Positions 27,934-61,292 of a DNA stretch of 64,000 nucleotides are shown here, piece after piece. The stretch comes from a virus (taxonomy: Duplodnaviria; Caudoviricetes). The notes under the pieces are model-generated. The model had not been told where the DNA came from, searched no databases, and was given only the letters and a program-made list of their open reading frames with translations. Position numbers and translations under genes: made by a program. The stretch lies in the IMG/VR virus record IMGVR_UViG_3300025000_000057; one strand, given 5' to 3'. Numbering within the stretch: the first letter of the stretch is position 1; the number at the start of each line of letters is the position of its first letter.

Positions 27934-27935
27934 TA

Positions 27936-29681
27936 CTATACATCTCCTGTCTGAACCCATATACAAAGATTTAACCAGATAGAAAGTTTCTCACTCCAGA
28001 CTTCTTCTGGTATAGATTTAAGTTGCCAGAAGGCCATGCCATATATACTAACATCGTTAGTATTATATTCTATCCAAGTATGACTATTATGATCATAAGC
28101 TAACCAGGTATTTCTATTGTCAAAACTTAATAAGATCTTAATATCGTATAACTGATTAGGGTCAATCTCTATATCTTCAATCGTAATAGTATCGCTTGTA
28201 TCAATTCGGTTATTATCATCAGTTATCGTAATTTGTTGACTATCAATACAATATAGTTTTTCAGTATCGATTTGCTCTTCAGGTATAGTCTCTTGTCTAT
28301 CGGATGATAGTATTTCTATTTCTATATCGACGGGCTTACTAGATTTTAAATCGCCCATTAAGAAGGTCAGCTTAATAATTTCGAAAGAACTAACGATAGT
28401 CTTAAACGTTAATGAATTTATAAACGAGGTATACGTAGGCAATCTTGATATAATAACCAAACCTGCATTATACCATATATTTGTATTAATAATAGGGTTA
28501 CGTAAATTACCAGCATACGAAGAACCGCCATATCCGCCCCTATTTATATCACCGGCCATACCACCGTAGTAGCCACCACCGCCACCACCGCCAATCTCTG
28601 GATGGTTTTGACCATTGCCTAATATTGTAGTTAAATGCAAAGTTTCTCCACCGGAACTACCGGCGCTTAAATTCCCACCGCCGCCACCGCCACCAGCAAC
28701 GATAATTCTATTTTCTAATTCTATACCGCCTCTTCTAATATCGGTAGCACCGCCACCACCTGCACCAGGCCCTAGCGGCCCGGCATTACCACCGCCATTC
28801 CATCCTCCACCTTCGCCAATAAAGCCCGTTCCATCCCCGCCGACAAATATATATAACTCTTGACCGGAATCTAATAACATTTGACCACGAACATGACTAC
28901 CAGAACCACCAGGGTAAGAATAAGCACCACCTACAGCACCGAAAAGATCTAATTGATAAATTCCTGTAGTTGGTACAATAAAGGTCTGATAATTACCAGA
29001 ACTATTAAATACCGCAGTTTCAACAGCTTCTTCTATACCCAGTAAGGCAAGTAAAGTTATAGCAACCTTACCATATCCAGTACGAATTCCAGGGGTAGTG
29101 ATACCGTTTAGAACTCCACCATAATAGGAGGAACCTCCTCCACCGGAACTACCTCAAGTATATCCACCTCCGCCACCGTACCATCCACCTCCGCCACCAG
29201 AACCATGACTTATTCCATTACTACCGTAACCAAAGCTACCATATGTTCCACTTACTCCTCCTGAACTACCTCCTTGTGTTTGTGTACCTCCACTGCCAGT
29301 AGTTCCACCAATACCAATTAATCCACCACCAGCGCCACCTTGAGCTGTATGAGAGTGTCCAGCTCCGCCGCCAGCAACCAGGATACGGTCATTAAGAGTT
29401 TGTCCTCCTCTTCGTATATCGGTACCACCACCGCCGCCGCCATAAGGACTAGCAAAACCGCCTCCATTCCAACCAGTAGAATTAGGAGCTCCTATTCCTC
29501 CAATATATATATAAAGAGTTTCAGTATCCCCTAAGTTTAAAATACCAGAGGCGTAACCACCGGGAGCTCCATTATTACCACCCTGAGCGCCCCATGTTTC
29601 AAGCTTATATATACCGGGAGGTAGTGTTACTTCTTGTTGACTACCGGTATAGTTAAAATTAAATACTTGTAAATCCACCAC
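27936..29681 (-). CDS. Glycine-rich tail fibre/adhesin (581 aa) with one in-frame UGA at codon 176 (29154-29156); two Gly-rich domains plus C-terminal repeat module
   Basis: Track ORFs 29154-29681 and 27936-28880 are in the same frame. The 91 codons between them have no stop and complete Gly-rich domain 1 (GSSGGGGSSYYGG...GYGKVAITLL) and begin domain 2 (FNSSGNYQTFIVPTTGIYQLDLFGAVGG). GTG start with GGAGG RBS; no RBS before 28880. Confidence 0.8.
29112..29150 (-). promoter_or_regulatory. SECIS-like/readthrough stem-loop downstream of the in-frame UGA (Gly-rich gene)
   Basis: Upper stem GGAGGA/UCCUCC with loop GGU (29127-29141); the loop begins 18 nt after the UGA. Possible lower stem AGUUCC/GGAGUU. 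Confidence 0.55.
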
Positions 29682-29689
29682 ACTACCTC

Positions 29690-32600
29690 CTATCCGTAAA
29701 TCCAGTTGTCACTAAAGGTTTTAAATCCTACACAAACATTTAACCAGTTAGTTAAAGCTTTATGCCAAGCATCTCGCGGTATGGATTTAAGTTGCCAGAA
29801 TGTCATTCCTGTATTGTGAATGTTATCTATACCCTTCTGTATCCAAGAACTAGTATCGTGGTCGTAAATGTACCAGGTTTCTCGATTATTAAAGCTTAAT
29901 AAGAATCTAATTTGTATACCATCGATCTCTTGATAATCGGCCACAATATCTTGAATAGCAACGGCTTGTCTTGTGTCAATTCTATTATAGTCATTTGTCA
30001 TAACTATAAATTCTGTATCTTCACGATTATCAATAATATTGAGCATTGCAAACTGTTCTTCTTTGTCATAATAGATAGTATCGCTCTTTACCTGTTCTTT
30101 AGGCAAATCTTGTATATATAAGATATCATCAACATCTGGTTCGGTATAACTCGATTTACTTATTAAGAAATTACAGACTATTTCCGATTTAAGTCCTGTA
30201 AAGCTCTTTGGAATATCAATAGTGAACAGTTTATCTAAATCTCCAGATTCCAATATTCCTGTGATATAATGACTTGAGTTATTAGTAAGAAGTCCTGTGA
30301 TTATACTTATAGCATTTCCATCAAAGTTCTTTAAGGTACGAAAAGGTATTAATACAGGAGAATCTTTCTCTTCTAAAACCTCGTGAATAGGAATATCTAA
30401 TTTAAACCCCGTTAACATGGGTATCTGGTAGACATCGAATTTATTAACAATTGTTCTGAAAGTGAATCCATTAACAGTATACATTGTCGTATTTAATAAG
30501 GTTATTCTAGCCTTACCATTCCCGGCTTGAACTCCAATCTGCATAGTACCGTCCGATACTCCGTCTGTATAACTAGAACCACCGCCGCCATTTGCTGAAT
30601 ATCCAGAACCATGTGGCGAATCGTTACCACCGGCCGCGCCGCCATAATAACCGCCACCGCCACCGCCTGAACCAGAGCAACAACCAGTATCTCCTGCGCC
30701 GCCTTGATATAGCGTCCCATTCCCACCTTTTACATACGTTCCGGCTCCTACACCTCCTTGTGTTTGAGAACCTCCTCCACCACCCCAAGACCATTGATAA
30801 CCAGCACCCGTTCGTGCTGGATTGGTAGTTAATTGACCAGCGCCCGATTGTGCTTGTATTTCGCCGCCAGCGCCGTAACGAGAATTTCCATACTCGCCAC
30901 CGCCACCGCCACCGCCAGCAATAATAATTCTATTAGAAAGAGAAGTATCGCCAACTCTTATATCAGTAGCGCCACCACCGCCACCACCATAACGAACACT
31001 ACTACTGGTATCGGTACCTCCATTACCTCCACCATTCCAACCTCCTGCTTTAGCACGACCCGGATATCCACCAATACAGATGTATAAAATATCACCCTGG
31101 GTTAAAGTAATCGTACCTTTAGTATAACCTCCGAGACCACCGGTTATTGAACTTCCTCCCGGCAATCCACCTTCAGCACCCCATACTTCTAATCGGTAAT
31201 CGCCTGTAAAAGGTGCTATCCATGTTATGTAATTGCCGGTATAAGTGAAATCGTATATTGTTTCATTACTATCGCTAGGATAGGCTATTAATCTAATAGC
31301 CATGTCTAACCATTCTGACAACTTTGTACTCCAAGTTTCTTCAGGAATAGAACTAACTTGCCAAAATGTCATTCCTTTCTCCTGAATATCATCTAAACTT
31401 ACAATAACCCATTGGTTGGTACTATAATCATAAGAATACCAAGTATTTCTATTGTCAAAGCTAAATAAGAATCTTTCATTTCCATTACTGTAATAGTCCT
31501 TATTTATGTCTTTAATTGTTACTATATTAGATGTATCTATCCTTGTATAATCATCTGTAGTAACGGTTATATTAATCGGTCGATCGCTACATATAGAAGT
31601 AAATATAGAAGGTGTTTTATCCAATATTTGAATCGACTTTAATGTTTCAATGTCAACAGTCTCACATATCAAATCTAAAGGTTTAGTACTGTAGTAAGAC
31701 GGTATATGAAGACCTTTTAAATACTCTAAAACATTACCAGAAAGTTTAGGTATAACGGGATCGATACTAATTAGATCATTAATAATTAAAAAGTCTATCT
31801 TATCTTCCTCGTTATTATGACTACTTTTATAAACTCCTACTAAATGACTCGCAATTAAAGCTCCAGCTCGCGATAAGATAGGAATATTTATACTATTATC
31901 CATTCTTTCTTTAATACCATTAATTCTACAGGTATTGCTTATAGTACCAGCTATTGTATCTATAGCAGCTCCGCTAGATACTATTGTTGGTATATTCTCT
32001 ACTTCATCAGAAGGATGAGTAAAGGTAACTTCTGATACGTTATTTATATAACATGCTATAGTTGTCCTAGTAATTACGCCTAGTAAGTTTCCGACGTATT
32101 CTATTAAAAGTTTACTTACAGATGGTGTAATACTTATATCTATGGTAGCAAGAGCAACTGCTATATTTAAATTTCCATGTACGCCCGGTTGAAAATAGTT
32201 CCAATCTACAGTATTTAGTTCGTCTGCTGTCATACCTACTCTATCTATATCGTCAAGTGACGCTTCTTGCCATACGGTATTATAAGTTAGCCAGCTACCT
32301 TTATTATCAAAGCTTACCAAGTATCTTAACAAAGTACCCTCGGGTTCTATTTGTACAGCCATTATATTAAGGATCTTTTTAACTTCGCTACAATCTATCT
32401 GATTATCTCCGGTAGTAATGTGATAAGGGATTATAGGATAAGAGAATAATACAAATCCAGCCTGATAGTTGATTTGTTTCTCTTCTTGACTAAGTACTCT
32501 ATTATATATTCTGGCCATAATAACACAACCATCAAAGGCTCCATAAGGGCCTGCGCCCATAATAATTGGTGACCATACTCGTGTCATATTAGACTTAAGT

Positions 32601-33274
32601 CCAATACGTACCAATACTCCATTAATATAAATAAACGGTTGCCTATCTATATACTCTACAATGACATGGGTTATTCCCGTAACCTCACCGCTATAAACGG
32701 CCACTGCGGGAAAATGAGCATCTCCGTATTCGTAAACACTAACTCCGTTAGAACCTATAGATACCCCTGCACCAACTCTAGTATCTATATATTTAGAAGG
32801 ATAAAACAAATACTTTTGACCATCTAATCCTGGAGAAGAACCTGTATTTATCTCATTATCAATCTGGTGTAATTGATCGGTCTGAACCCACGCTTCCAGG
32901 GTAAAGGTATCATAAACAGGATTATAGCTAAGAGTGCATTTACTATTTATACCGTTAAATAAAAGAGCATAGGGATTTGCATTAGTTCCATCCCCTATCC
33001 AGCCGTCCGAAATAAAGTTAAAGTCAGAAAGCTCGGTCAACTTCCAATCTCCGCTTGCAGCGAGATTAATCCATGTAGATAATGGATTAGAGCCATGTTT
33101 GTCATCCTCTGTAGCTCGGGCAGCAATCAAATCGATTAATAGCCCGTCCTTTACATACTCATGTACTGTTTTATGTAAAGTGACGGCATCAACTAGAAAA
33201 TCGATGCCGTCAATATTTGGGATGACAAATGACTCTTTATCATAGATATTAAATTGCAAAGAGTCCTTTGCCAT
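29690..33274 (-). CDS. Tail fibre/adhesin (1194 aa): LamG/concanavalin-like domain, glycine-rich domain and repeated fibre modules
   Basis: FTLEAWV...THVIVEY...FIYINGVL...FDGCVIMARIYNRVLSQEEKQINY (LamG-like); YRLEVWGAEGG...GGGGGATDIR...IIIAGGGGG (Gly-rich). Confidence 0.75.
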   Translation of the reverse strand: MAKDSLQFNIYDKESFVIPNIDGIDFLVDAVTLHKTVHEYVKDGLLIDLIAARATEDDKHGSNPLSTWINLAASGDWKLTELSDFNFISDGWIGDGTNANPYALLFNGINSKCTLSYNPVYDTFTLEAWVQTDQLHQIDNEINTGSSPGLDGQKYLFYPSKYIDTRVGAGVSIGSNGVSVYEYGDAHFPAVAVYSGEVTGITHVIVEYIDRQPFIYINGVLVRIGLKSNMTRVWSPIIMGAGPYGAFDGCVIMARIYNRVLSQEEKQINYQAGFVLFSYPIIPYHITTGDNQIDCSEVKKILNIMAVQIEPEGTLLRYLVSFDNKGSWLTYNTVWQEASLDDIDRVGMTADELNTVDWNYFQPGVHGNLNIAVALATIDISITPSVSKLLIEYVGNLLGVITRTTIACYINNVSEVTFTHPSDEVENIPTIVSSGAAIDTIAGTISNTCRINGIKERMDNSINIPILSRAGALIASHLVGVYKSSHNNEEDKIDFLIINDLISIDPVIPKLSGNVLEYLKGLHIPSYYSTKPLDLICETVDIETLKSIQILDKTPSIFTSICSDRPINITVTTDDYTRIDTSNIVTIKDINKDYYSNGNERFLFSFDNRNTWYSYDYSTNQWVIVSLDDIQEKGMTFWQVSSIPEETWSTKLSEWLDMAIRLIAYPSDSNETIYDFTYTGNYITWIAPFTGDYRLEVWGAEGGLPGGSSITGGLGGYTKGTITLTQGDILYICIGGYPGRAKAGGWNGGGNGGTDTSSSVRYGGGGGGATDIRVGDTSLSNRIIIAGGGGGGGEYGNSRYGAGGEIQAQSGAGQLTTNPARTGAGYQWSWGGGGGSQTQGGVGAGTYVKGGNGTLYQGGAGDTGCCSGSGGGGGGYYGGAAGGNDSPHGSGYSANGGGGSSYTDGVSDGTMQIGVQAGNGKARITLLNTTMYTVNGFTFRTIVNKFDVYQIPMLTGFKLDIPIHEVLEEKDSPVLIPFRTLKNFDGNAISIITGLLTNNSSHYITGILESGDLDKLFTIDIPKSFTGLKSEIVCNFLISKSSYTEPDVDDILYIQDLPKEQVKSDTIYYDKEEQFAMLNIIDNREDTEFIVMTNDYNRIDTRQAVAIQDIVADYQEIDGIQIRFLLSFNNRETWYIYDHDTSSWIQKGIDNIHNTGMTFWQLKSIPRDAWHKALTNWLNVCVGFKTFSDNWIYG
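33181..33212 (-). repeat. 10-13 bp hairpin near the 5' end of a CDS
   Basis: UGACGGCAUC-GAUUUUCUAGUU-GAUGCCGUCA (extendable by G-U and A-U pairs); nt 63-94 of gene 29690-33274. Confidence 0.85.
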
Positions 33275-33286
33275 GTGATCACCAAC

Positions 33287-36200
33287 TTATCCGCGATTAT
33301 ATACAGCAACTGCTCTAGTTCCTGCTAAACTACTATATCCGATCGAACCTGCTGTATGAATATCATACACCTGACTACCTACGGTAATGGTATCATCCTG
33401 GATTACACCCGACAACGGAATCGCATAAACATGATCAATCTCTCCACGAATACCATCACTAATACTACCAACCTCGATAGGAGCCATATAATACAACCCG
33501 CCGCCGCCAGGGTTAGATGGCGGCAAAGCTGAATAGAAATCGTAAGCAGGCCCATTAACAGTATTAGCTTTATCTTTAAGTGGATAGATTTTAGAATTTC
33601 CTTCAATATTTGTCGAAGCTAATACGACAGCTGTATTATTAGGTTCAACTCCAAATAGCTTAAGCCGTCCTACATAATGCAATGCATTGACAGCACCAGC
33701 TATAGCTACTTCTGCTATTATAGATAAGACAATATGATCATCGAATGTATAGAGCTTATAGTTAAATGGTGAAGTCTTTACGATTACAGCCGAGGCAAAG
33801 AATACAGATTTACTTTGATCGTTAGTAAAAGTACCGGCCAATCCGGTAAGATATCCGAGTTTAATTGTGGTATTAAATGGGCCAATTGTCTTACGTGTTA
33901 CTAAGATTGAATCGATATTACTAACATTTATAGTTACATCGTAAGTATTGGTTACCTCGGCTTCAGCTGTAAGTTTGTTCTTTATAGCAGTGGCTACTTG
34001 TGATACAGTTTGTCCACTCGTAACCGACACCTGAATCTCCTTATTAATAATGCCATTGCTAACAAAGATTTGTAATAGCCCGGTTGTCGTACAATTGGAA
34101 AGCACTTTGATAGTATTTTCTTCTTTAGAACCACTACCTCCTTGAGCTAATACACTAATGGTCAAAACGGTACCTGTATCGTTAGCGTCGAAAGTAGGAT
34201 CTGGATTGTCAACCATTAGTGTAGATGAAATAGTTACGACATTATCCACTACAGTAGCATTCCAATTATCTAAAGCATCGGCAACGGTACGAATCCTATT
34301 AACTATAGATGTGAAACTATCAGCTCCATTTAAAGTCGCGATTAAGGTTTTATTTAAGATACCATCACTTAAATTAATACTAATAGTACCATCGTTTATC
34401 GCACCTGTTAAGACTGTTAGTGTATTTACTTCAGCGACGCCTGTTACACCGACTACAGACTGAGTTATAGAACAATTTACTTCGATAGCTACTACACCTA
34501 ATGTAACAACAGTATCAACAGCGCCGGTAGCGTCTCGTGAGATTATTACGTTATTATTTGTACTGGTTATTGTATAACTAGAACCAATTTGACCATCGTT
34601 TTCTAACAAAATAGCAATCTTAACAGCCAAGGTATCTATCGTATCTGTAGATAGAATATCAAAGTTAACTGACTTATTAATTATTCCATCATTAAAGTTA
34701 ATTACACCGGTTTGTGAGATATTAGATACGTTTGTAATCGTAAGTGTATTAATCTCTTTTACGCCGGTAATACCCTGTTGAGTTATATTAATAGTAACTG
34801 TAGTGCCAGTATCATTAGGGTTAAAAGTAGCATCTACTTGACTCTCTGCGGAAGCGGCGGCAATGGTTACGACATTATCGTTAACGATAGCGACATAATC
34901 TGCTAAAGCATCTACTGCAAATTGTATAGCTGAGGCCACTTCTTGAAGACTATCAGCTGTTACTACGTTTACGTCAATAGTCTTATTAATTACACCATCA
35001 CCAAAGAATACATTTATCGTACCATTAGCAGTACAAGCGGAGTTAACAGTAATTGTATTAACCTCTTGTATTGAAACATCCCCGGGAGTTGTTTCAACGA
35101 AGGTGGCACCAATGCCGGTATTATTTCCAGCAACAGCTATGGTTAAATCTACAGCGCCTACATCATTCTTAGTAATAATAACCTGATTACCAGAGCCGGA
35201 AATTGTATACGAGACGGAAACATCCGTGTCAGTGGCTAGTACATTTCTAATCTTGGCCGCGACTTCTTCCGTAGTATTGTCACCATTACTTACAGTTACA
35301 TTTACCGGAGTATTATTTAAGATTAAGCTAACATTCCCACTGGTAATAGGAGAACCTGTTACCGTTAAGTCAAATACTTCAGCTACAGATGTAACACCTA
35401 TTTGAGTTTCTGCAATTGTCTTGACAACTCCGTTAGGAACTTCGGTAATGGTAATAGTAATACTTTTAGGGCCACCAGTTTTAGAAGCTATGGTTATTAT
35501 ATTAGTATCTATCACATTAGTTATTGTATATGCTGTATTAATATCGTTATCGCTAGTTAAAGCTGTCTTAATTTTACCAGCAACTTGAGCAGCTGTATCG
35601 TTACCGACTACTGGAAACTTAATACCGGGCTTAATAATAGTACCGTCATCAAAGTTAATATTAAGCGTACCAGAAACAGTAGCACCACTATTTACAATAA
35701 TAGTGCGTTCTTCATTAACCGGTGTAATACCAGGTATCGTTTCTATATCACTTGCGGTAACACCGGTAATGGTATCAGTTATACTCATATTAAAGTCAAT
35801 AGCCCTTGAATCTTTGGCTGTAATTATAACTTTACCATTAACGTCTACAATTACATCGTAAGCCATAGCTATTGCCGAGTCGCTCAGTAACGTATCGCGA
35901 ATTTTCTCAGCTACCACCCTAACACTACCGCTATATACCGGAATGATAACAGGAGTAGTTCCTATGGTTAAGGTAGTATTACCATCATAGGTGGGTAAAT
36001 CAGCTACACTAATCTCAAAGGATTCCATATTAGGATCTAAGCCTGGTGTAGTTCTGTCGATAGATAATCCTACGCCCGTGGTACCAGGCTGATAGTTTTC
36101 AGCAGGGCCTAATGTAAAACGGTCGCTATTTGCAATGACCGGAGTTATACGTATAAAGAGAGGGCCGGTGGGAAGTTGCTTCTTCATAACACCGTCTTCA

Positions 36201-36298
36201 GGACGAGACATTACACTCTCCCAGCCTTCGGCTTCAAGCTGTTTCCATACGTTCGATGCTAAATCTTTAATTTGACATCTTGTTGCATAAATAGTCAT
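33287..36298 (-). CDS. Tail-associated protein (1003 aa) with about 7 tandem 100-110 aa beta-rich repeats; paralog of 36317-37324
   Basis: Repeats start (E/K)E.NT.TV...G.I.I...DG..NK and contain D(T/S)...VA..I. The motif LGPAENYQPGTTGV matches LGGAQNYVPGTTGV of the neighbouring gene. Confidence 0.65.
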   Translation of the reverse strand: MTIYATRCQIKDLASNVWKQLEAEGWESVMSRPEDGVMKKQLPTGPLFIRITPVIANSDRFTLGPAENYQPGTTGVGLSIDRTTPGLDPNMESFEISVADLPTYDGNTTLTIGTTPVIIPVYSGSVRVVAEKIRDTLLSDSAIAMAYDVIVDVNGKVIITAKDSRAIDFNMSITDTITGVTASDIETIPGITPVNEERTIIVNSGATVSGTLNINFDDGTIIKPGIKFPVVGNDTAAQVAGKIKTALTSDNDINTAYTITNVIDTNIITIASKTGGPKSITITITEVPNGVVKTIAETQIGVTSVAEVFDLTVTGSPITSGNVSLILNNTPVNVTVSNGDNTTEEVAAKIRNVLATDTDVSVSYTISGSGNQVIITKNDVGAVDLTIAVAGNNTGIGATFVETTPGDVSIQEVNTITVNSACTANGTINVFFGDGVINKTIDVNVVTADSLQEVASAIQFAVDALADYVAIVNDNVVTIAAASAESQVDATFNPNDTGTTVTINITQQGITGVKEINTLTITNVSNISQTGVINFNDGIINKSVNFDILSTDTIDTLAVKIAILLENDGQIGSSYTITSTNNNVIISRDATGAVDTVVTLGVVAIEVNCSITQSVVGVTGVAEVNTLTVLTGAINDGTISINLSDGILNKTLIATLNGADSFTSIVNRIRTVADALDNWNATVVDNVVTISSTLMVDNPDPTFDANDTGTVLTISVLAQGGSGSKEENTIKVLSNCTTTGLLQIFVSNGIINKEIQVSVTSGQTVSQVATAIKNKLTAEAEVTNTYDVTINVSNIDSILVTRKTIGPFNTTIKLGYLTGLAGTFTNDQSKSVFFASAVIVKTSPFNYKLYTFDDHIVLSIIAEVAIAGAVNALHYVGRLKLFGVEPNNTAVVLASTNIEGNSKIYPLKDKANTVNGPAYDFYSALPPSNPGGGGLYYMAPIEVGSISDGIRGEIDHVYAIPLSGVIQDDTITVGSQVYDIHTAGSIGYSSLAGTRAVAVYNRG

Positions 36299-36316
36299 TT
36301 TTTTAATGAAACCTCC

Positions 36317-37324
36317 TTAAGGAGTATATTTAATCACAATAGCATAATCTTTCTCAGTTATATTAATAGTTTTTCTAGCTCTAAACCCGTCTAAGGGGGT
36401 ACCTACGCCAGACTGTGGAGTATAGATTGAGGCTACTGGATAAGGAAATACTACAAGGTATTTATTCTCACCCGTATCTACCGTGGCAGCGAAACCTGTT
36501 GTACCAAGAATTCGGATATTACTTCTATCGAATCTTGAAGTATAGATATTTGTTAAGACACCAAGCGGTACTGTATTCATGGTATTAACACCATCATGGT
36601 AATAAGCGGGAACAGATCTTAAGAATAACTTTCTTGTATATCCGATGTCCATATATGGATCGTAAGAACCTTGACACCAATAATAATCTTGATTGACGTA
36701 ATTATAAGGGCCCGATACGGCAGTTAAAGCCCTATCAAAAGTAGGACTTTGCGTAGTACTCTGACAGATGATAGGCATGCCATCCGGATGGTCTTCGAGA
36801 GGATCGACAGTTCCGAAGAAACCAACCGCTCTTGCATTAGAGTCTCCGTTAATTTCAATAGCCAATACGATGGATGTTGGTTCTACGATTAAGTGCCAGT
36901 TCACATTACCTATACCAAAATTAGTCGGTAATACACCCGCTCTTAAGAATAGAGATTGTTCAATCAAATTTTCGAACGTACCAGCTACTCCGGTAGTTCC
37001 TGGTACATAATTCTGAGCCCCGCCTAATGTAAGACCAGAATTAGAATTGATAGTATTTTGAGCATAACCACTAATACTAGCGGTGCTATTAAACGCACTA
37101 GTCGTAGCAAGAGCTCCGATTACACAGAAAAGGTTTCTACTGTCTGGACTATTTACCTTAGCCCTAGATTTAAATACTTGTTTATAGAGATTTGTAGCAA
37201 CTGGCGAATCTGACGTAATATTATCCCAATAGGGATCTGTTTTACCTTGTGGAATACTAACTACAGCAGCAGCGATATCAGCTAGTAAACCATCTGGGTA
37301 AAGACTTGTACCAGTAAAATACAT
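36317..37324 (-). CDS. Tail-associated structural protein (335 aa)
   Basis: ORF with GGAGG RBS. Paralogous motifs with the 1003-aa protein. Confidence 0.55.
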   Translation of the reverse strand: MYFTGTSLYPDGLLADIAAAVVSIPQGKTDPYWDNITSDSPVATNLYKQVFKSRAKVNSPDSRNLFCVIGALATTSAFNSTASISGYAQNTINSNSGLTLGGAQNYVPGTTGVAGTFENLIEQSLFLRAGVLPTNFGIGNVNWHLIVEPTSIVLAIEINGDSNARAVGFFGTVDPLEDHPDGMPIICQSTTQSPTFDRALTAVSGPYNYVNQDYYWCQGSYDPYMDIGYTRKLFLRSVPAYYHDGVNTMNTVPLGVLTNIYTSRFDRSNIRILGTTGFAATVDTGENKYLVVFPYPVASIYTPQSGVGTPLDGFRARKTINITEKDYAIVIKYTP

Positions 37325-37368
37325 AACTCCAACCTCCCACTTTAAAGTAATTCTTGACCAATACTATA

Positions 37369-38610
37369 TTAACCCCTATCGCCGGTCTGATCGAACTTAA
37401 CGGTTATCATCAAATCTTTACCACCTGGAGTAATCAAACCCGTTTCATCTATATCAATAGAGAATATATCTCCCTCGTAGAAATCCACGTTAATAGATTC
37501 GACCACAACGCTATTTTGTCCATCGGAAATGCGTGGTCTTGTACTTTGATCTGTAAAAATACTAATATCATTCTTATTAATATCTAGTACTAAATCAGAG
37601 CCAATGGGTGCATTATTAGCACGTATCATAACCTTAGACATTACAAAATGTTCTGGAATAATAACCTGAATTAAGCCTATTGTGTGTGGAAATAATATAT
37701 CCTTAATGCAGATAATAGCAGATCGTTTGTTACCGATATTTGTAGTTATATCAAATTCGGTATCTAAACGTTCCTTTAAAGTTGGATACTCTCCCCTAGC
37801 TTCGATTACTTCTTCTTTAACTCCATCCTTATCTAAGATACGACGCAAGTCTTTAGTTATTAGTTGATCTAGCGTCTCACCTATAACAAGGGTACCAAGT
37901 ATCATTTTAGAGCGAGATTCTGATAATATCGTATCATAAACGATAGTACCATGTTGGTCTAAGAAGAAATAATATGTAGTATTTAAGTTAGGGTTTAATA
38001 ATGTAAATACCTGATCTTCTTTTTCAATTAGCTGTTCAAGTATATAAGAACGACCACCGTAAATAGGAACTTTAACATTCACGCCATCTACTTCGGGTTT
38101 ACCAAGGGTAAGCTCAAGATATTTCTTACTGTCAATATAGTTTTTAAGATTATCATAAGAACCTCGGGCTTTTACTACTTCTTCGTAAATACCATCTTTT
38201 CTTAAGATATGACGCAAGTCTTTAGTTATTAGTTGATCTACTTGAGTACCTGTAGAAACCGAACCGATAATCATGTCGGTCTCTAATTCCTCTGGAGTAT
38301 TCCTATAAATGATAGTACCATTTGTATTAATAAAGAAATAATAAGTAGTTTCAGGCATAGCTCCTGGAATATAAATATTAATCATATCTGAATACTGAAC
38401 AACGTAACCCATGATAAATGCAGTACCTTGATTTATAGGGACATAAATAGCACTACCAGTCCAAACAGCTTCGTTTAATCTAAAATCGGTATAACCTCTG
38501 GTATCGATATATTTCTTAAGCCTATCGTAAGAACCTCGAGCCTCTGATATTTCATTTTCTATGGCAGTTACTCTACCACTATTTAGCTGATGATCTTTTA
38601 GCTTTCTCAT
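37369..38610 (-). CDS. Tail fibre-attachment-like protein (413 aa) with an internal tandem repeat
   Basis: Three ARG(S/E)Y..LK..(I/L)D motifs and two TYYFF...GTI.Y...MI.G......DQLITKDLR.IL.KDG units. C-terminal APIGSDLVLDINKN...DIDETG...GGKDLMITV. Confidence 0.6.
   Translation of the reverse strand: MRKLKDHQLNSGRVTAIENEISEARGSYDRLKKYIDTRGYTDFRLNEAVWTGSAIYVPINQGTAFIMGYVVQYSDMINIYIPGAMPETTYYFFINTNGTIIYRNTPEELETDMIIGSVSTGTQVDQLITKDLRHILRKDGIYEEVVKARGSYDNLKNYIDSKKYLELTLGKPEVDGVNVKVPIYGGRSYILEQLIEKEDQVFTLLNPNLNTTYYFFLDQHGTIVYDTILSESRSKMILGTLVIGETLDQLITKDLRRILDKDGVKEEVIEARGEYPTLKERLDTEFDITTNIGNKRSAIICIKDILFPHTIGLIQVIIPEHFVMSKVMIRANNAPIGSDLVLDINKNDISIFTDQSTRPRISDGQNSVVVESINVDFYEGDIFSIDIDETGLITPGGKDLMITVKFDQTGDRG
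37842..38240. repeat. Exact 30-nt direct repeat (37842-37871 and 38211-38240)
   Basis: GACGCAAGTCTTTAGTTATTAGTTGATCTA occurs twice, extending to 38 nt with one mismatch. Confidence 0.9.
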
Positions 38611-38620
38611 ATCCTCTCCC

Positions 38621-39469
38621 CTAACTAATAATTACCGCATTTCCTTTACGAGTGGGGATAAAACGCTCATTCCAGGCGCAAAGCTGCTTTACCAACAGTA
38701 CCGTTTCCTCATTTACAGTTAAGTAATATATCTGTACTTCAGAGATTTCTAAACTGATCTTAGATACAATCTCTTCTATATATTTAACATCCAAGGGTTC
38801 CCCAGCATTACGACTCGCTAGGTAATCTTCTGTACTAATCTTTGCGGTACCTCTAATAAGGTTCTGATCTAGTTCTGATACATCCTTGTAAAAGATTATA
38901 CGTATACGAATCTCCACATTAAGGAACCGAGGTTGAAATACGTCAATTCTAGTTCCCCAACCGCCGACCATTCTAGCTGCAGTGGTTACTTGTTTAATAA
39001 GATTTGGTAACTCAGCCGGATCTTTATTAATAACATATATAGAGCCGGAACCGGTGCCGTGAGTATACGCTTTCATAATAACATCATCTACTCCGGGTAC
39101 CGACAGACAAGCAAGACGTACGGCCGTTTCATTAGAGGTAGCCATACTTAACAGTTGTTGACTAATTCGATAACGATACGGTTCATCCTTTTCATCAACG
39201 TATCGTTTACAGTACATCATATATCCTATCGCATCAAGTGCGTCTTCTCCTGCATAAGACAAGAAAGCTTGAACCAGTTCTTTCTTTAATGTGTCATAAA
39301 AACCATCAACATTACTTTCTGAACTCTTAGCAAATTCCTCGTTAAAGATAGCCAGTAGAAGTCTAGTTACTCCGCCACGACTAATCTCTGATAATTCCTC
39401 AGAATTTGCTAATCTATTCATAGCATTTGTCATTATGGTTTCAAAATCCTTGTTGATCTTTAGGAGCAT
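38621..39469 (-). CDS. Baseplate J-like wedge protein (282 aa)
   Basis: EKDEPYRYRI...AVRLACLSVPGVDDV...HGTGSGSIYV resembles Baseplate_J. It lies next to the gp25-like gene. Confidence 0.75.
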   Translation of the reverse strand: MLLKINKDFETIMTNAMNRLANSEELSEISRGGVTRLLLAIFNEEFAKSSESNVDGFYDTLKKELVQAFLSYAGEDALDAIGYMMYCKRYVDEKDEPYRYRISQQLLSMATSNETAVRLACLSVPGVDDVIMKAYTHGTGSGSIYVINKDPAELPNLIKQVTTAARMVGGWGTRIDVFQPRFLNVEIRIRIIFYKDVSELDQNLIRGTAKISTEDYLASRNAGEPLDVKYIEEIVSKISLEISEVQIYYLTVNEETVLLVKQLCAWNERFIPTRKGNAVIIS

Positions 39470-39471
39470 AT

Positions 39472-39879
39472 TTAAACCTCCATTACTTTGATAACCCCGG
39501 AGGAAAGATCTAAACCAATTTCTAAACTAATAGGTTGTGCAAAATAAGGACTGTTAACAAATAAGAAGAACAATATCGTAGTTTTCGATATAGGGACTGG
39601 TCTGATATAGATATCTTTCTTATCTATAAGATCGTCTTCAGTTAGTGCAAAGGTAATCTTATCAATAGTAAGCTGAGCCGTATCGGGACTATTAGGCATT
39701 CCTATGATATCTTCCATATCCGCCCCGATATGATCTAATCTCCAATTAATCCTTACAGCTTTTATCCTATTAATAATAGACTGTAACTGAAATTCCCCTT
39801 CTTTAGCTACGGCCAGATCGTGATCTCGAATGATAAAATCACCGTCCGGAGATATTGCAATATCTTTAGCTACTCGCAT
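39472..39879 (-). CDS. gp25/GPW-like baseplate wedge subunit (135 aa)
   Basis: ATG 39879 with GAGGTG RBS. DIAISPDGDF...QSIINRIK...HIGADMEDIIG...ITFALTEDDLI follows PAAR, as usual for gp25-like genes. Confidence 0.75.
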   Translation of the reverse strand: MRVAKDIAISPDGDFIIRDHDLAVAKEGEFQLQSIINRIKAVRINWRLDHIGADMEDIIGMPNSPDTAQLTIDKITFALTEDDLIDKKDIYIRPVPISKTTILFFLFVNSPYFAQPISLEIGLDLSSGVIKVMEV

Positions 39880-39883
39880 CATC

Positions 39884-40225
39884 TCACCTCGCAACAAAGA
39901 AGTTATTAGAACCGCTTACCATATTTCCGGCCCCTTGGAGATGAATATTCACTCCATCTCCAACTCTTACAATACCCCGACCGTTTACAAATAAACTAGT
40001 ACTAGCCTGTACATTCGTATATCCTGCTCCACAACATGGGCAGGTTGTATAACCTGTATCGCTTAGTCTTGCTGCGGACTTACCGTTAATAAACATATTG
40101 TGACTCCCGGTCACTTGGCCACCCGTAACCGAGTGGCCACCACATCAGTTATCTGGACAACCATGACCATTGTGGTGTCCGACGCTGCCATTCATTCTAT
40201 CACCTATTCTACAAGCTGCTGGCAT
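39884..40225 (-). CDS. PAAR spike-tip protein (113 aa) with one in-frame UGA at codon 27 (40145-40147)
   Basis: ATG 40225 preceded by AGAGGTG. Translation: MPAACRIGDRMNGSVGHHNGHGCPDN*CGGHSVTGGQVTGSHNMFINGKSAARLSD...TCPCCG...FVNGRGIVRVGD...HLQG...SGSNNFFVAR. The track reports only the part after the UGA, which lacks the first PAAR motif. Confidence 0.85.
40116..40139 (-). promoter_or_regulatory. SECIS-like/readthrough stem-loop downstream of the in-frame UGA (PAAR gene)
   Basis: UGGCCACUCG-GUUA-CGGGUGGCCA: 10-bp stem with one G-U pair and loop GUUA. The stem starts 5 nt and the loop 15 nt after the UGA. Confidence 0.6.
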
Positions 40226-40256
40226 TTTATCACCTCTGTACAAAGCTTGAGTTAAT

Positions 40257-58500: not shown

Positions 58501-61292
58501 ATGTTAGGGCTACCAAGGCTCATGTTAATGACATCTACCTTCTGACCATTAGCTCCTCTCCACTTTATCGCATAATCAATTCCTTTAACAACATCTTCAG
58601 TAGGAGCTCCTCCACTATCAAATACCTTAATAGGCAATATCTTAACCGAGGGCCAAGCTACACCGGCCACACCCTCTTTATTATCGCCAATAGCCGCTAT
58701 AGTACCTGTAACGTGGGTACCATGTCCGATCGTATCTTCATCCCACGGAGCGTAACTAACCTCGGTATGTTGAAAGTCTTTATACCTCTTAGCAAAGCTT
58801 TTTCCAGGTAGTATCTTACCCTTAAGATCTGGATGATCTTTATCCACACCACTATCAATAACAGCTACAATACTTTCTTTATGAGAATCTTTCATTACAG
58901 TACCAATGGCAGGCCCGGCCCCGATTTTCTTATAGCCCCATTGTTGGTTGTAATATTCATCATTAGGGGTTTCGTAACTCTTTGGCTCAGTAGCTACTGT
59001 GGTATCATCCTCGCCCTCTATCTTCCGCCATACTTCGGGATGCATTGGTCTTTGTGGTTTTAATAGTTGGCCAATAGTTGCATTAAGTAGTGGGCCTATC
59101 AATGGAAACTCCTCAAGTTCAGGTGTTCCACCGGTTAATAGGTATGGTCTATCTTTATAATGTTTTTCTTCAAAGTGATATGGTTCAGTTACGAAATGAC
59201 GTAAAGGAGCTAATGGGTATCGAGGAGTAGGATAAGGTGCGTTAGCAAAGTATTCACCCTCACTCCCGTACTGAGTATCAGTATATTCATAATGAGATTT
59301 AGTACGTCTTACCCAATTTGGTGAGTAATACATCGTCCGGCTGCCGGTTAGTGGCGTATTTCCCATAAACCACCAACGACCTTTTCTTATCGGAACTTCT
59401 CCTTTTTCCCAGAACTCCTCGGTTTCTTCCTCGGTATCGTCAAGATCGAAGAATCTACCTATCAATGGAAATTCTGCAATCTGCTCGCCACCGGGTAAAA
59501 GGTTCTTAACTTGTTTAGCCATGTCTGTTATACCAAGTACATCTTTAACTTTGGCTATACCCGTACTTACCTCTGAATAACCTTCAGCTATCATATCATC
59601 CGGGCGAATCCCTGTAAGATTCTCAGTTTCATAATTCATATAATCCCAAGCTTCAAGTCCGGCCCATACAGGTACAGCTCTACGCAATACCATGTTAAGA
59701 AATATATCAGCCCCACTTTTCCTATGCTCGGCAGATAAACCTAAACGAAATGTAGCCAAGGCTGCATCTAACCTAGAAAAGAAATAATAAAACGGCACTG
59801 ACAGTGTAGTTGTATCTTCTGGACGATCTCTATGAGCGAAGAATTGCTTTGTAATATCTATAGGATTTTCATAGCGAATGCTACGCATAAAAAGCCAGTT
59901 TGTTTCACTTTCTTCTTGTCCGGCTCTACCCCAGGTGGAACCGAAAGGTCTACCGGAGAAAAGACCACGATTCTCGTACGGAAGCATGTGCTTCCAAAAC
60001 ATATCAGCTGGCTTTGCTATAATATCTGTTAGAGCATTCGTTATATCAAATTCTCGATTATAATCATCTTTTTGCTGGTGACCTATATCAAGTTTCCTAG
60101 TGAACCAGGCCCAATGTTTACGCCATCCACTAGTAGGATATTGGTAATCTTCAGGTTTTGGTAATCCGGCACCGCTAATTCCTTGTAAGAATGTCCGCCC
60201 AGGGCCGACCTTCGCATTTATTAAATAACCTTTGATGGGTGCTTTACTTGCATCTTCTACATCATGAAGCATATCATCAAGCATTAGATAAAGTTTCTTT
60301 GTAGATTCTCTACCGGATAATACAGGTTGTATTTCATCCGGACTCATAAGATGAATCATTGGTCTATCTCTAACATTTAACATATCTCCAACGTGAAACA
60401 TTGCCAGCGGATTAAAGTTTACAAACGGTAACCCGAAATCAGTTTCCATAGAATTGAGTACCGACTTTCCTACCTTAGGCCAATAACGCAAATCGTGTAA
60501 TTTACTTGCCTCGTCGATAAAAACCCAAGGGTCTGCCATTTTATTAAATAGATTTTGTTCACCCAGTTCTACTCTGTACTTAGAGATTATGTCACGACTA
60601 TTTAATCGGTTTCTATTGAATAAAGCACCTTTACTATTTTGGTGATTCCAAAGATCGCCTACGGTAGCCCGACGCATACCGTACTTTCTAAGATCTGTTT
60701 CACGCATCTCTTGTGTGTACTCGTTATAACTAGAAAGAAACTGTTTAGTTTTATCCTGAACAATACGTTGTCTTCTAGTATCGACCGTGCGAGCATGCTC
60801 CATTACTCGTTCAGTTTCTCTGAGCCGCCGTTCTATATCAAGATCGTCTGTAATAAGCTTACCACCAGTAACGCCTCTTTGCATTAAATTAGCTCTTTTA
60901 GCAGCAATCTTATTGGATAACTCTGTCATACTTTCTTCCCAGCCGGCCCCGAGTATACCGTGACTACCAAGGAGTTTATCTTTAAGAGTACTATATTGAT
61001 CCCATGGTAATGGCCCTTTAGCCCACTCTTTAACAGAAGATAGTATAGCATCAGCTTCGGTAGGCCTAAACCTTCCCATAGCTTTAATAAAGCTTTTAGA
61101 GATATCGTTAAAAGCACCTCTTCTAAAAGCATGTCTACCTCCAAGGAATAAAGCAGTACCTATACCCGTAGTAGTCAAAAAGGTTCGCAATGGCGAACCT
61201 TTATTCTCGTAGTAATGATCTGGGTTTAGGTATTTATGATGTTCAGGATTTCCGTCTATACTTTCTTTCCAAAAGTTGTCGTTGGACGGCAT
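55506..61292 (-). CDS. Tape-measure-like giant protein (1928 aa) containing an S8 subtilisin-like protease domain and an SNase-like segment
   Basis: ATG 61292 with GAGGAG RBS. Follows the chaperone pair. S8 motifs VAVIDSG, HGTHVTGTIAA, AASGNE, SGTSMATPHV. Gly/hydrophobic segments typical of tape measure proteins (GMIVGGLFGGFMGYLAG). Confidence 0.75.
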   Translation of the reverse strand: MPSNDNFWKESIDGNPEHHKYLNPDHYYENKGSPLRTFLTTTGIGTALFLGGRHAFRRGAFNDISKSFIKAMGRFRPTEADAILSSVKEWAKGPLPWDQYSTLKDKLLGSHGILGAGWEESMTELSNKIAAKRANLMQRGVTGGKLITDDLDIERRLRETERVMEHARTVDTRRQRIVQDKTKQFLSSYNEYTQEMRETDLRKYGMRRATVGDLWNHQNSKGALFNRNRLNSRDIISKYRVELGEQNLFNKMADPWVFIDEASKLHDLRYWPKVGKSVLNSMETDFGLPFVNFNPLAMFHVGDMLNVRDRPMIHLMSPDEIQPVLSGRESTKKLYLMLDDMLHDVEDASKAPIKGYLINAKVGPGRTFLQGISGAGLPKPEDYQYPTSGWRKHWAWFTRKLDIGHQQKDDYNREFDITNALTDIIAKPADMFWKHMLPYENRGLFSGRPFGSTWGRAGQEESETNWLFMRSIRYENPIDITKQFFAHRDRPEDTTTLSVPFYYFFSRLDAALATFRLGLSAEHRKSGADIFLNMVLRRAVPVWAGLEAWDYMNYETENLTGIRPDDMIAEGYSEVSTGIAKVKDVLGITDMAKQVKNLLPGGEQIAEFPLIGRFFDLDDTEEETEEFWEKGEVPIRKGRWWFMGNTPLTGSRTMYYSPNWVRRTKSHYEYTDTQYGSEGEYFANAPYPTPRYPLAPLRHFVTEPYHFEEKHYKDRPYLLTGGTPELEEFPLIGPLLNATIGQLLKPQRPMHPEVWRKIEGEDDTTVATEPKSYETPNDEYYNQQWGYKKIGAGPAIGTVMKDSHKESIVAVIDSGVDKDHPDLKGKILPGKSFAKRYKDFQHTEVSYAPWDEDTIGHGTHVTGTIAAIGDNKEGVAGVAWPSVKILPIKVFDSGGAPTEDVVKGIDYAIKWRGANGQKVDVINMSLGSPNINPGYSDAIKRAYNSGIVVVAASGNEYQTEHVGSPAIYPEAIAVGAVGPNMKKADFSNSGAGLDVVAPGVDIASTLPEDSQMGSMYGVSSGTSMATPHVAATAALLKTQRPDLTPAEIKFLIQSTAVDLEEDGWDKETGHGLVNAYTATSILSGMSDEERELIRKGGSLESEQINKERIALINAIRESGITKAAFETVGKSLVDKYNREIKNPVDTDMAILQTWENVKEFGGFYGFSTELLYDTGKGIEPQIATARAMSSYRREFWDTELGGIPGDINEIARRFIGHREKWENRYNPVPNTMPDWLPGEEYFTDFKTGDPYVKIRRGEMRLPGEAYESLHPDTAAEVEKALEDPEIRRKLEAGEIHRGELYGPISRFRILADVAPWSTQYDEASKFVTEMKKTKEQEQEVKEIRKQVKDRNDPIRLYPYRFKDKETKSETVTVTKVLDDWEDSHDYFFYTKEYPDNPIKLAGLRVPMSKEKAGARQFLNKYIKPGEQVTIEYTADDVTKINDDTYKTISAVVYTGNENLNRQLLEQDLANEKDNDFTPAGIVARFTPSERAMGQAWEKFAHLDTPFHTKLLQVRSPIESYKRRDLYGKDWQMWQDPWEDYVVPTYQSIMSKGMIVGGLFGGFMGYLAGRKRFGKIIATGLGAVLGGTGGAYFTGHEFVTGETWVPERRKKEWETHEYYDMLKYLKNVSLYNKYAQEALDTEKFDVKKYLQEKDEQKKIDSKRTNELESAKRDIKGTTDNVDVNEWITKLNLTGNPRDERELIKLINQELTKLKAPKKEEKLTPLAQKALDYYNESKSTMYGHKPQDPLKDLLRAIPKKERQYLEGFINATPDEREELRDIMSPYMKRIVQEAWGEKASEKQSLLEYFKAHFLPDPEWGGWREDVNLNNVKVKYIKAESMDPSEFDIWPDDEIAANEPNVPPAPKINIHETANTIKSKLQSILGGAGIDAEIQIEPNDTGQLSVEVETQRDIRQDIANCMNNYSSLVLG
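61179..61202 (-). terminator. Intrinsic terminator-like hairpin inside the 5' end of the tape-measure-like CDS
   Basis: AAAGGUUCGC-CAUU-GCGAACCUUU then UUGAC (a run of 5 U overlapping the stem base), 41 nt after the stop of the 242-aa gene. Confidence 0.55.

Follow-up and report, generated by a model that had tools for sequence, protein, structure and literature searches.

An internal UGA codon in the predicted spike-tip gene of a giant groundwater phage, conserved together with an RNA hairpin and possibly decoded as selenocysteine

Bacterial selenoprotein genes, of which Escherichia coli fdhF is the prototype, carry an in-frame UGA codon followed by an intragenic SECIS hairpin bound by SelB, and a consensus model of the bacterial SECIS (bSECIS) has been published (PMC13188914). 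PAAR-repeat proteins (Pfam PF05488), such as c1882 (4JIW), VCA0105 (4JIV), T4 gp5.4 (4KU0) and a phage P1 protein (9VYI), form spike tips; known members bind Zn at the tip (PMC10715212) and are encoded without any internal stop codon. UGA codons are also read through in a programmed manner, as in the A1 protein of phage Qbeta and in eukaryotic viruses that use a UGA plus a 3' stem-loop (reviewed in PMC13517186), while stop-codon-recoded phages (bioRxiv 10.1101/2021.08.26.457843) and phages of code-25 bacteria (PMC10746230) carry many in-frame stops and usually a suppressor tRNA. The locus described here, in a giant groundwater phage, has features in common with each of these systems, in that the gene for the predicted tip of the tail spike, and perhaps one tail-fibre gene, is interrupted by a single internal UGA. 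Related phages keep the spike-tip UGA together with an RNA hairpin, most likely to insert selenocysteine (Sec), and no such virus-particle protein was found in the literature that could be searched.

The window examined in this study is a 64,000-nucleotide stretch of IMG/VR record IMGVR_UViG_3300025000_000057, in which all genes lie on the minus strand (Table 1). A reading of the sequence alone had reported that of 26 genes 15 end in TAA, 9 in TAG and only 2 in TGA, that the only two internal TGAs are each followed by a hairpin, and that both lie in genes for parts that contact the cell. This observation is correct: the 26 large genes gave exactly these stop counts, and a crude ORF scan of the whole 137,036-bp record found no mid-gene TGA other than these two in 43,738 codons, compared to 598 TGG codons. 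Pfam and PHROG domain matches run across both TGAs. The possibility that the two TGAs are sequencing or assembly errors, or recent damage in a dead genome, has nothing in its favor beyond the prior expectation for metagenome-assembled genomes and is very improbable, since both TGAs are identical in every independent assembly (ENA, Logan and NCBI) and in contigs of 3 runs from 2 studies. For the PAAR gene this possibility is already refuted by the conservation of the TGA in two other phages.

Table 1. Positions of the recoding candidates, their hairpins and the second UGA terminator within the 64,000-nucleotide window.
Position	Strand	Feature	Description
39884..40225	-	PAAR spike-tip gene	113 codons plus stop, read through one internal UGA; RBS and ATG at 40225; own terminator also UGA (39884-39886), with no hairpin after it and a TAA within 6 codons
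40145..40147	-	In-frame UGA, PAAR codon 27	In the motif H-G-C-P-D-N-[UGA]-C-G-G-H
40116..40139	-	Hairpin 1	10-bp stem with apical loop GUUA, starting 5 nt after the UGA; loop G-U at +19/+20 counted from the U of UGA; built from rare codons TCG, ACG and GGC
40100..40114	-	Hairpin 2	GUGAC-CGGGA-GUCAC; occurs once in the window
27936..29681	-	Tail-fibre-like gene	581 codons, two ALK/LTK-type glycine-rich domains, interrupted by one UGA
29154..29156	-	In-frame UGA, fibre codon 176	In a variable loop (…G-G-Y-T-[UGA]-G-S-S-G-G-G-G-S-S-Y…)
29127..29141	-	Candidate fibre hairpin	GGAGGA-GGU-UCCUCC, with the loop 18 nt after the UGA
61243..61245	-	UGA terminator	The other genuine UGA terminator in the window, with a TAA three codons later

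The PAAR gene matched PF05488 with 44 bits against a cut-off of 27, as well as phrog_281, and lies directly after the gp5-like spike gene and before the gp25-like sheath initiator gene. An AF2 model of the read-through protein had a pLDDT of 92.7, and its top structural matches were all PAAR proteins, with 4JIW, 4JIV, 9VYI and 4KU0 matched over its full length (Foldseek probability 1.0, TM 0.70-0.80 normalised by target). Two divergent phages (38% and 63.5% GC) keep the TGA at the same codon, such that the TGA is found in three lineages: the window, L005 (a syntenic relative with 39-60% identical neighbouring genes) and L001 (a contig of 63.5% GC that shares only this gene, its copy having 67% GC). 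Both halves of the gene are under protein-level constraint, with the N-terminal 26 codons being 68-76% identical with free synonymous change. Third-position identity between the window and L001 is 11/17 in the 22 codons after the UGA, compared to 13/63 elsewhere (Fisher p=0.0009).

The RNA structure downstream of the PAAR UGA is also conserved. Hairpin 1 has a predicted energy of -18.8 kcal/mol and is more stable than all 2000 synonymous-codon resamples, and a hairpin this strong follows only 0.05% of codon positions; the 61-nt stretch containing it has an MFE of -25.3 kcal/mol (z = -3.1). The downstream structure beats synonymous resamples in all three phages (p<0.0005, 0.0065 and 0.04), and the pairing of hairpin 1, which starts 5-6 nt after the UGA, is kept in L005 and L001 with two double-compensatory and two G-U changes, with 89% of cells paired compared to 29-56% in slid controls. 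Hairpin 2 is identical in nucleotides in all three TGA-bearing phages, and its codon choice has a probability of about 1.5e-4 under the codon usage of this genome. It is absent from the TGA-less relatives L011 and L012. A maximum-likelihood tree places the TGA-less L011 inside the TGA clade (support 95/89 and 97/89) on a branch four times longer than that of its sister, and L011 lacks both hairpins (z = 0.05) and has lost Cys23, Cys28 and one Cys of the C-P-C-C motif. The PAAR UGA is therefore a case of programmed recoding rather than damage, and since the same gene ends in a UGA with no hairpin, decoding depends on context.

There are several potential explanations for how this UGA is decoded. 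Insertion of selenocysteine is favored in this study, although it is held to be only about as likely as not. Hairpin 1 meets the published bSECIS model in loop (G then U), stem length and energy, while its spacing from the UGA to the loop is 15 nt, one short of the 16-37 nt of the model and different from the spacing at the fibre site. With an unbiased X at the UGA, the column is the x of the conserved G-C-P-x-C-(P/G)-H knuckle, and across 130 homologues it holds A in 48, C in 19, G in 16, S in 15 and Y in 4. Cys occupies this column in 18 of the 38 homologues that lack the first Cys of the knuckle, but in only 1 of the 92 that have it, so the column is an alternative ligand position; L001 and L005 read C-P-N-U, a CxxU spacing. 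However, the closest TGA-less outgroup homologues (7 sequences) have Tyr, not Cys, directly before the conserved Cys. In addition, no tRNA-Sec above the cut-off, SelB wing domain or UCA-anticodon tRNA (among 11 tRNAs, also at relaxed thresholds) was found in the 137 kb of phage DNA examined, which is about 61% of the genome.

Structure-stimulated read-through by a near-cognate tRNA, most likely Trp, remains a live rival, though an unlikely one. In this view the UGA is a deliberately leaky stop, the hairpin at the mRNA entry channel lowers termination by release factor 2, and only a small fraction of ribosomes would complete PAAR, which is needed once per virion; the fibre UGA would be read in the same way. 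Low-level UGA-to-Trp decoding is established in Bacillus subtilis and in the Qbeta A1 protein. The Tyr found at the UGA column in 7 of the nearest TGA-less homologues is consistent with this view, as is the 5-6 nt spacer between the UGA and hairpin 1, the usual geometry of ribosome-directed recoding stimulators. The invariance of hairpin 2 in phages whose hosts probably differ widely (38% versus 63.5% GC) fits a universal target such as the ribosome better than a species-specific SelB. Moreover, TGA-terminated genes have a nearer backup TAA or TAG (median 6 codons versus 13-14.5; p=0.017), and the GC-rich relative uses only 2 TGA among 14 stops, both of which hint at generally leaky UGA rather than Sec. 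On the other hand, the base after the UGA is U in all three PAAR genes, which is the strongest bacterial termination context (PMC5289835), and hairpin-stimulated read-through has no bacterial precedent known to us. Across the 130 homologues the column holds small residues or Cys and never Trp, and the loss of three nearby cysteines in the lineage that lost the UGA would not be expected if the residue were a structurally ordinary Trp and the UGA purely regulatory.

It is also possible, but quite unlikely, that UGA is decoded generally, either by a host that reads it as Gly or Trp (code 25 or code 4) or by a UGA suppressor tRNA encoded in the 82 kb of the 219-kb genome outside the DNA examined, in which case the phage would be at an early stage of stop-codon recoding and would avoid TGA as a terminator. 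The sample is Rifle-type groundwater and sediment, where code-25 bacteria occur, and phages of such hosts are reported to rely on stops other than TGA (PMC10746230). Recoded phages are reported to concentrate recoded stops in late genes (bioRxiv 10.1101/2021.08.26.457843), Gly would fit the Gly-rich fibre loop, and TGA is the rarest stop and tends to be backed up. Nevertheless, only 2 in-frame TGAs were identified, and about 12 of 113 ORFs genome-wide, including PAAR itself, end in TGA once the two internal TGAs that the scan also counted as stops are left out. No UCA-anticodon tRNA is present in the 137 kb examined, one TGA-bearing relative has 63.5% GC, unlike known code-4 or code-25 lineages, and general decoding gives no reason for the exact codon and the hairpins to be conserved in three phages or for their joint loss in L011. 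There is thus no genome-wide code change. The scarcity of UGA terminators is real, but it adds little to the argument, since about 11% TGA with TAG more frequent than TGA is ordinary for low-GC phage or Firmicute DNA.

The fibre site is less certain. The gene matched PF12810 (E = 1e-47, 163.6 bits), with the match over residues 16-209 covering profile positions 1-241 of 243 and spanning the UGA, and matched phrog_7388 over residues 5-211. The TGA is present in all 12 contigs that carry the N-terminal ORF, including a 219-kb NCBI record, although all contigs carrying the site are one near-clonal population. The hairpin that follows has an energy of -7.6 kcal/mol and a 6-bp stem and only just passes the bSECIS model; such a hairpin follows 0.94% of codon positions genome-wide and 6.7% within this gene, and synonymous resampling gave p=0.056 at 36 nt and p=0.23 at 51 nt. 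The sequence-only reading had considered two random nonsense errors, each followed by a SECIS-like hairpin, to be unlikely, and the joint chance of both hairpins is about 3e-5 to 9e-5. A fixed nonsense mutation in a redundant fibre paralogue, with the hairpin a by-product of Gly (GGA) and Ser (UCC) codons, is a possible but tentative alternative for this site. No relative carries this gene, so that conservation cannot be shown, a paralogue with the same domain lies directly upstream, and the UGA lies in a loop in which no homologue has Cys and for which there is no chemical reason for Sec. Against a lesion, the remaining 405 codons are open and still match the domain consensus, completing the conserved final strands of the domain. 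Three of the gene's six rare TCC codons fall within 9 codons after the UGA, and three of the four Ser codons just after it are TCC (probability about 2e-3), while the paralogous motifs use other Ser codons. It is also one of only two mid-gene TGAs in a phage whose other one is clearly programmed. The fibre UGA is therefore either a second recoding site or a nonsense lesion.

In the explanation favored here, when the ribosome reaches codon 27 of PAAR, hairpin 1 and the invariant hairpin 2 would direct insertion of an amino acid instead of termination, giving a complete 113-residue PAAR cone. The most likely mechanism would be host SelB with Sec-tRNA bound to the intragenic SECIS, placing Sec in the Cys/His knuckle (C-P-x-U-C-x-G-H) at the metal-bearing tip. 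The fibre UGA would probably be decoded in the same way through its weaker GGU-loop hairpin, but this rests on one phage population, and nothing else in the genome would be recoded. The analysis demonstrates the conservation of the PAAR UGA, the structure co-inherited with it and the translation of both halves as one protein, whereas the presence of Sec in that protein, the availability of tRNA-Sec, SelA, SelB and SelD in the cell, the involvement of SelB and any dependence on selenium are inferred. The sequence-only interpretation, a phage-wide recoding switch that could tie production of infectious particles to host selenium or SelB status, is thus partly supported. The analysis supports that recoding is site-specific, that the PAAR UGA with its hairpin is a conserved, selected recoding signal that fits a bacterial SECIS in loop, stem and energy, and that both genes encode virion tip parts (a PAAR cone and an ALK/LTK-type Gly-rich-domain fibre), while a phage-wide switch tied to selenium remains an inference.

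Compared to bacterial selenoprotein genes, the PAAR gene shares an in-frame UGA conserved among orthologues, a stem-loop immediately downstream inside the coding sequence with G then U at the start of a small apical loop and an MFE far below -7.5 kcal/mol, constraint on synonymous sites over about 45 nt, and a UGA in a Cys/His metal-type motif where part of the family has Cys. It differs in encoding a phage virion structural protein rather than an oxidoreductase, in its slightly short spacing, in the second, sequence-invariant hairpin, in the Tyr of its nearest TGA-less homologues, and in that no Sec machinery has been identified. Compared to known PAAR proteins, the predicted fold, the gene order and the His- and Cys-rich tip are the same, but this clade has an enlarged first tip loop carrying C-P-(D)-N-[UGA]-C. 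As in programmed UGA read-through, the UGA is followed a few nucleotides later by a stable stem-loop and the full-length product is needed in low copy number in the particle; however, in those cases both the short and the long product are functional proteins, while termination here would leave a 26-residue peptide, and the U at the +4 base is a poor context for read-through. Finally, as in stop-codon-recoded phages and phages of code-25 bacteria, in-frame stop codons occur in late, structural genes and TGA is little used as a terminator, but here there are two sites, one of them conserved at a single codon with its own RNA structure, and TGA still ends genes.

The window corresponds to the minus strand of positions 22861-86860 of a 137,036-bp virus record with 38.6% GC and 11 tRNA genes, none of which has a UCA anticodon. 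The same sequence lies within a 219,483-bp NCBI phage contig (GCA_902725955.1) and within several ENA and Logan assemblies of groundwater and sediment metagenomes; the record examined therefore represents about 61% of the genome. All genes in the window are on the minus strand, and the two in-frame TGA codons fall in a contractile-tail baseplate module that includes a gp5-like spike, PAAR, a gp25-like sheath initiator, a baseplate wedge, and large fibre-like proteins, two of which carry the ALK/LTK-type glycine-rich domain PF12810. Four giant ORFs flank the baseplate genes, and the 2073-codon ORF is 39-52% identical to a 1927-codon protein with lysozyme-like and M23 peptidase hits in L005, a syntenic relative with 38% GC.

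Coordinates of the features discussed (window positions unless another sequence is named)
Feature	Position	Strand	Remarks
gp5-like spike	40257-40781	minus
PAAR gene	39884-40225	minus	read through one internal TGA
TGA terminator of PAAR	39884	minus	TAA within 6 codons
In-frame TGA, PAAR codon 27	40145-40147	minus	motif H-G-C-P-D-N-[TGA]-C-G-G-H
Hairpin 1	40116-40139	minus	10-bp stem, GUUA loop
Hairpin 2	40100-40114	minus	GUGAC-CGGGA-GUCAC
SD-like GGGAG in the loop of hairpin 2	40094-40106	minus	7 nt before ATG codon 44
gp25-like sheath initiator	39472-39897	minus
Baseplate wedge	38621-39469	minus
In-frame TGA, codon 176 of the 581-codon fibre gene	29154-29156	minus
Candidate fibre hairpin	29127-29141	minus	GGAGGA-GGU-UCCUCC
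Paralogous 1194-codon fibre gene	29690-33274	minus	G-C-C-S-G-S motif at residues about 864-876
Giant ORF, 3482 codons	14392-24840	minus
Giant ORF, 2073 codons	41176-47397	minus
Giant ORF, 2700 codons	47401-55503	minus
Giant ORF, 1933 codons	55506-61307	minus
Second TGA terminator	61243	minus	TAA within 6 codons
Weak tRNA-Pyl-like (CUA) structure	G000:C1:82678-82760 (whole record; window about 4101-4183)		inside a coding region
PAAR gene of L001 (63.5% GC contig)	L001:9908-10261
Divergent fibre end in assembly scaffold_2024 (L008)	L008:4710-5974 (window about 27968 and downstream)

The observation made in the sequence-only reading is confirmed, and its counts are exact: the 26 large genes of the window end in TAA 15 times, in TAG 9 times and in TGA twice, with both TGA stops backed by a TAA. 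Reading TGA as sense joins ORFs at only two places, PAAR codon 27 and codon 176 of the fibre gene, and a crude ORF scan of all 137 kb found no other mid-gene TGA among 43,738 codons, compared to 598 TGG. In the fibre gene, the Pfam match (residues 16-209) and the PHROG match (residues 5-211) run straight across the stop, and the residues after it complete the conserved last strands of the domain. Both TGAs are identical in every independent assembly and in contigs of three runs from two studies, one of them a sediment sample, and they are not assembly errors.

Protein searches recovered truncated PAAR calls that begin just after the stop, and their contigs show why. In both L001 and L005, the upstream 25 codons are open, PAAR-like and in frame, and the aligned codon is again TGA (C-P-N-[TGA]-C-x-G-H). 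The tape-measure-like protein, spike, sheath initiator and wedge of L005 are 39-60% identical to those of the window, while L001 shares nothing detectable at E<1e-5 except PAAR, at 75% identity; the TGA-plus-hairpin PAAR cassette therefore appears to have moved between unrelated phages and to have been re-coded to 67% GC while keeping the TGA. The N-terminal 26 codons are 68-76% identical as protein with free synonymous change, so both halves are translated as one protein. The read-through protein gives a confident AF2 model (pLDDT 92.7), and the best structural matches of this predicted fold are all PAAR cones aligned over the full length: 4JIW, 4JIV, phage P1 9VYI and T4 gp5.4 4KU0. A PDB sequence search gave no useful residue-level alignment. 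These relatives came only from protein look-ups in ENA and Logan assemblies. Nucleotide and tblastn searches of an annotated phage collection with the region, PAAR and the fibre N-terminal domain found no match, searches for related loci in viral, metagenome or genome contigs found no relative with either protein or with PAAR alignments, and exact-pattern scans of the viral, metagenome and genome collections for the invariant hairpin-2 motif gave 0 hits.

Five to six nucleotides after the UGA, all three genes can form hairpin 1, which is followed by hairpin 2, nucleotide-identical in all three despite the difference in GC content. Several lines of evidence indicate that this structure is selected. 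Between the window and L001, third-codon positions are identical at 11 of 17 sites in the 22 codons after the UGA, but at only 13 of 63 elsewhere (p=0.0009), and when synonymous codons were resampled under each contig's own usage, the observed structure was more stable than expected in all three (p<0.0005, 0.0065 and 0.04). On the three-sequence alignment, which gives little statistical power, 89% of cells pair compared to 29-56% when the partner strand is slid, with two pairs showing changes on both sides and two showing G-U changes. In addition, the hairpins are built from codons that are rare in this genome (TCG 7%, ACG 11%, GTG 8.5%, GGG 9%), and the two closest relatives without a TGA, L011 (with TGG nearby) and L012 (with TAT), have no excess structure at the same place (z = 0.05 and +0.9). 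An Rfam scan of 27000-41000 at E<=10 gave only two chance miRNA/snoRNA matches and no SECIS family, and L001 and L005 have no Rfam or tRNA hits. Termination-reinitiation at the conserved UGAUG overlap is rejected, since that AUG opens a different frame that stops after 19 codons and the 10 residues after the UGA are conserved as protein. Gene callers start PAAR at ATG codon 44, downstream of the SD-like GGGAG (70-aa product), or at the GTG of codon 38; however, in L005 the ATG is TTA, so internal initiation is not conserved.

To examine which residue is inserted, 133 PAAR domains were re-aligned with an X at the UGA, so that the letter chosen for it could not bias the alignment. The UGA falls at the x of the conserved knuckle G-C-P-x-C-(P/G)-H, in which the first Cys is present in 92 of 130 homologues and the second in 122 of 130. 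The x column holds Ala 48, Cys 19, Gly 16, Ser 15 and Tyr 4, and never Trp. Cys at x is almost exclusive to sequences that lack the first Cys (18 of 38, compared to 1 of 92), and the column is therefore an alternative ligand position; in L001 and L005 the spacing is C-P-N-U, which is CxxU. PAAR tips bind zinc through His and Cys at the apex, and these residues are essential (PMC10715212), although that this knuckle is part of the metal site is an inference. A maximum-likelihood tree places the TGA-less L011 inside the TGA clade as sister of L005 (support 95/89 and 97/89), on a branch four times longer than that of its sister, and L011 has lost the UGA, both hairpins, Cys23, Cys28 and one Cys of the C-P-C-C motif together. 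Such joint loss is expected if residue 27 belonged to a Cys/Sec cluster, but would not be expected if the residue were an ordinary Trp behind a purely regulatory stop. The Trp residues of nearby TGA-less relatives do not bear on this question, since in ungapped or unbiased alignments the Trp of P0008 (fibre) and of L011 (PAAR) is one or two columns away from the UGA. The terminator of PAAR itself is also UGA in the window and in L005, without a hairpin, so decoding depends on context.

Other observations argue against selenocysteine. The seven nearest outgroup homologues read P-[I/V]-Y-C-x-G-H, with Tyr at the column, and no tRNA-Sec, SelB or suppressor tRNA was found in the 137 kb examined; at a relaxed threshold ARAGORN called only a weak tRNA-Pyl-like (CUA) structure, which is probably noise. 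An invariant hairpin 2 in phages of very different GC content fits a universal target such as the ribosome better than a host-specific SelB. In addition, ORFs that end in TGA have their next in-frame TAA or TAG at a median of 6 codons, compared to 13-14.5 for ORFs that end in TAA or TAG (one-sided Mann-Whitney p=0.017, n=14), which may reflect backup stops after a leaky terminator, and L001 ends only 2 of 14 called genes in TGA (7 TAA, 5 TAG; binomial p=0.006 against an assumed 50% TGA share), which is odd for GC-rich DNA. Both hint that UGA may be generally leaky in these hosts. Structure-stimulated read-through, most likely as Trp, is therefore a serious rival, although the strong +4 U termination context (PMC5289835) and the lack of a known bacterial precedent count against it. 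A reassigned-code host or a hidden suppressor tRNA is unlikely, as it would not explain two sites in 43,738 codons, TGA-terminated genes, or the conserved codon with its RNA structure.

The fibre TGA lies in a variable, Cys-free loop of the first glycine-rich domain. The best hairpin, at -7.6 kcal/mol with its loop 18 nt after the UGA, only just passes the published bacterial SECIS (bSECIS) model; with a strict implementation, such a hairpin follows 0.94% of codon positions genome-wide and 6.7% of positions in this gene, and synonymous resampling is marginal (p=0.056 and 0.23). In favour of recoding, three of the gene's six rare TCC codons fall within nine codons after the UGA, whereas the paralogous G-G-G-G-S-S motifs use other Ser codons and form no hairpin. 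In the paralogous 1194-codon fibre protein, whose glycine-rich domain carries the G-C-C-S-G-S motif just before the Y-Y-G-G segment, only 1 of 92 Ser codons is TCC, compared to 6 of 45 in the UGA-bearing gene. No relative of this gene was found in any collection searched, and all contigs that carry it are one near-clonal population. One assembly, scaffold_2024 (L008), at first resembled a fibre variant with a swapped C-terminus that shares the TGA; however, it is identical to the window up to the last 10 codons of the fibre gene and then continues into unrelated, non-coding-looking sequence, which may be a chimeric join, a contig or genome end, or a rearrangement, and it does not count as evidence. 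The site is thus either a second recoding site or a fixed nonsense lesion in a paralogue, with the former somewhat favoured. The joint chance of two random TGAs each being followed by hairpins of this quality is about 3e-5 to 9e-5, but that number says little by itself because the PAAR site is already settled by conservation.

The interpretation offered in the sequence-only reading, that scarce UGA terminators and two UGA-plus-hairpin sites reflect a phage-wide recoding switch, is only partly supported. Genome-wide, stop use is about 64% TAA, 26% TAG and 11% TGA, and since TAG is commonly more frequent than TGA in low-GC Firmicutes and their phages, the stop-codon argument adds little. Programmed, conserved UGA recoding in the PAAR gene is well supported by the analysis, and we hold it with high confidence. 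That the inserted residue is selenocysteine is inferred; it is the best single mechanism, about as likely as not, but is unproven, and the phage-wide switch remains an attractive inference. A further possibility, not excluded but unlikely on present evidence, is that both UGAs are selenocysteine codons served by the host's SelB. In this view, the phage would build two host-contacting virion parts as selenoproteins, the PAAR spike tip with Sec in its metal knuckle and a Gly-rich fibre, production of infectious particles would depend on the host's selenium supply and Sec machinery, and the PAAR-UGA-SECIS cassette would also move between unrelated phages.

The recent selenoproteome papers examined do not mention phage, virus or PAAR, and literature searches for phage selenoproteins, for PAAR with selenocysteine, and for UGA read-through in phage tails found nothing relevant, including no conserved UGA recoding signal in a phage tail gene. 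If the residue is Sec, the PAAR tip would add a structural, metal-binding selenoprotein family, would show that phages exploit the host Sec system, and would predict that infectivity depends on selenium and SelB. If the residue is Trp, this would be the first hairpin-linked programmed read-through in a tailed phage, probably setting the one-per-virion dose of the spike tip. Either way, gene callers truncate these genes, with public calls starting at an internal GTG or ATG, and any screen that discards ORFs containing stop codons will miss them. The closest known mechanism is bacterial Sec insertion at UGA with an intragenic SECIS, and the protein is a PAAR spike tip; hairpin 1 meets the published bacterial SECIS model in loop pattern, stem length and energy, but its loop starts 15 nt after the UGA, compared to 16-37 nt in the model.
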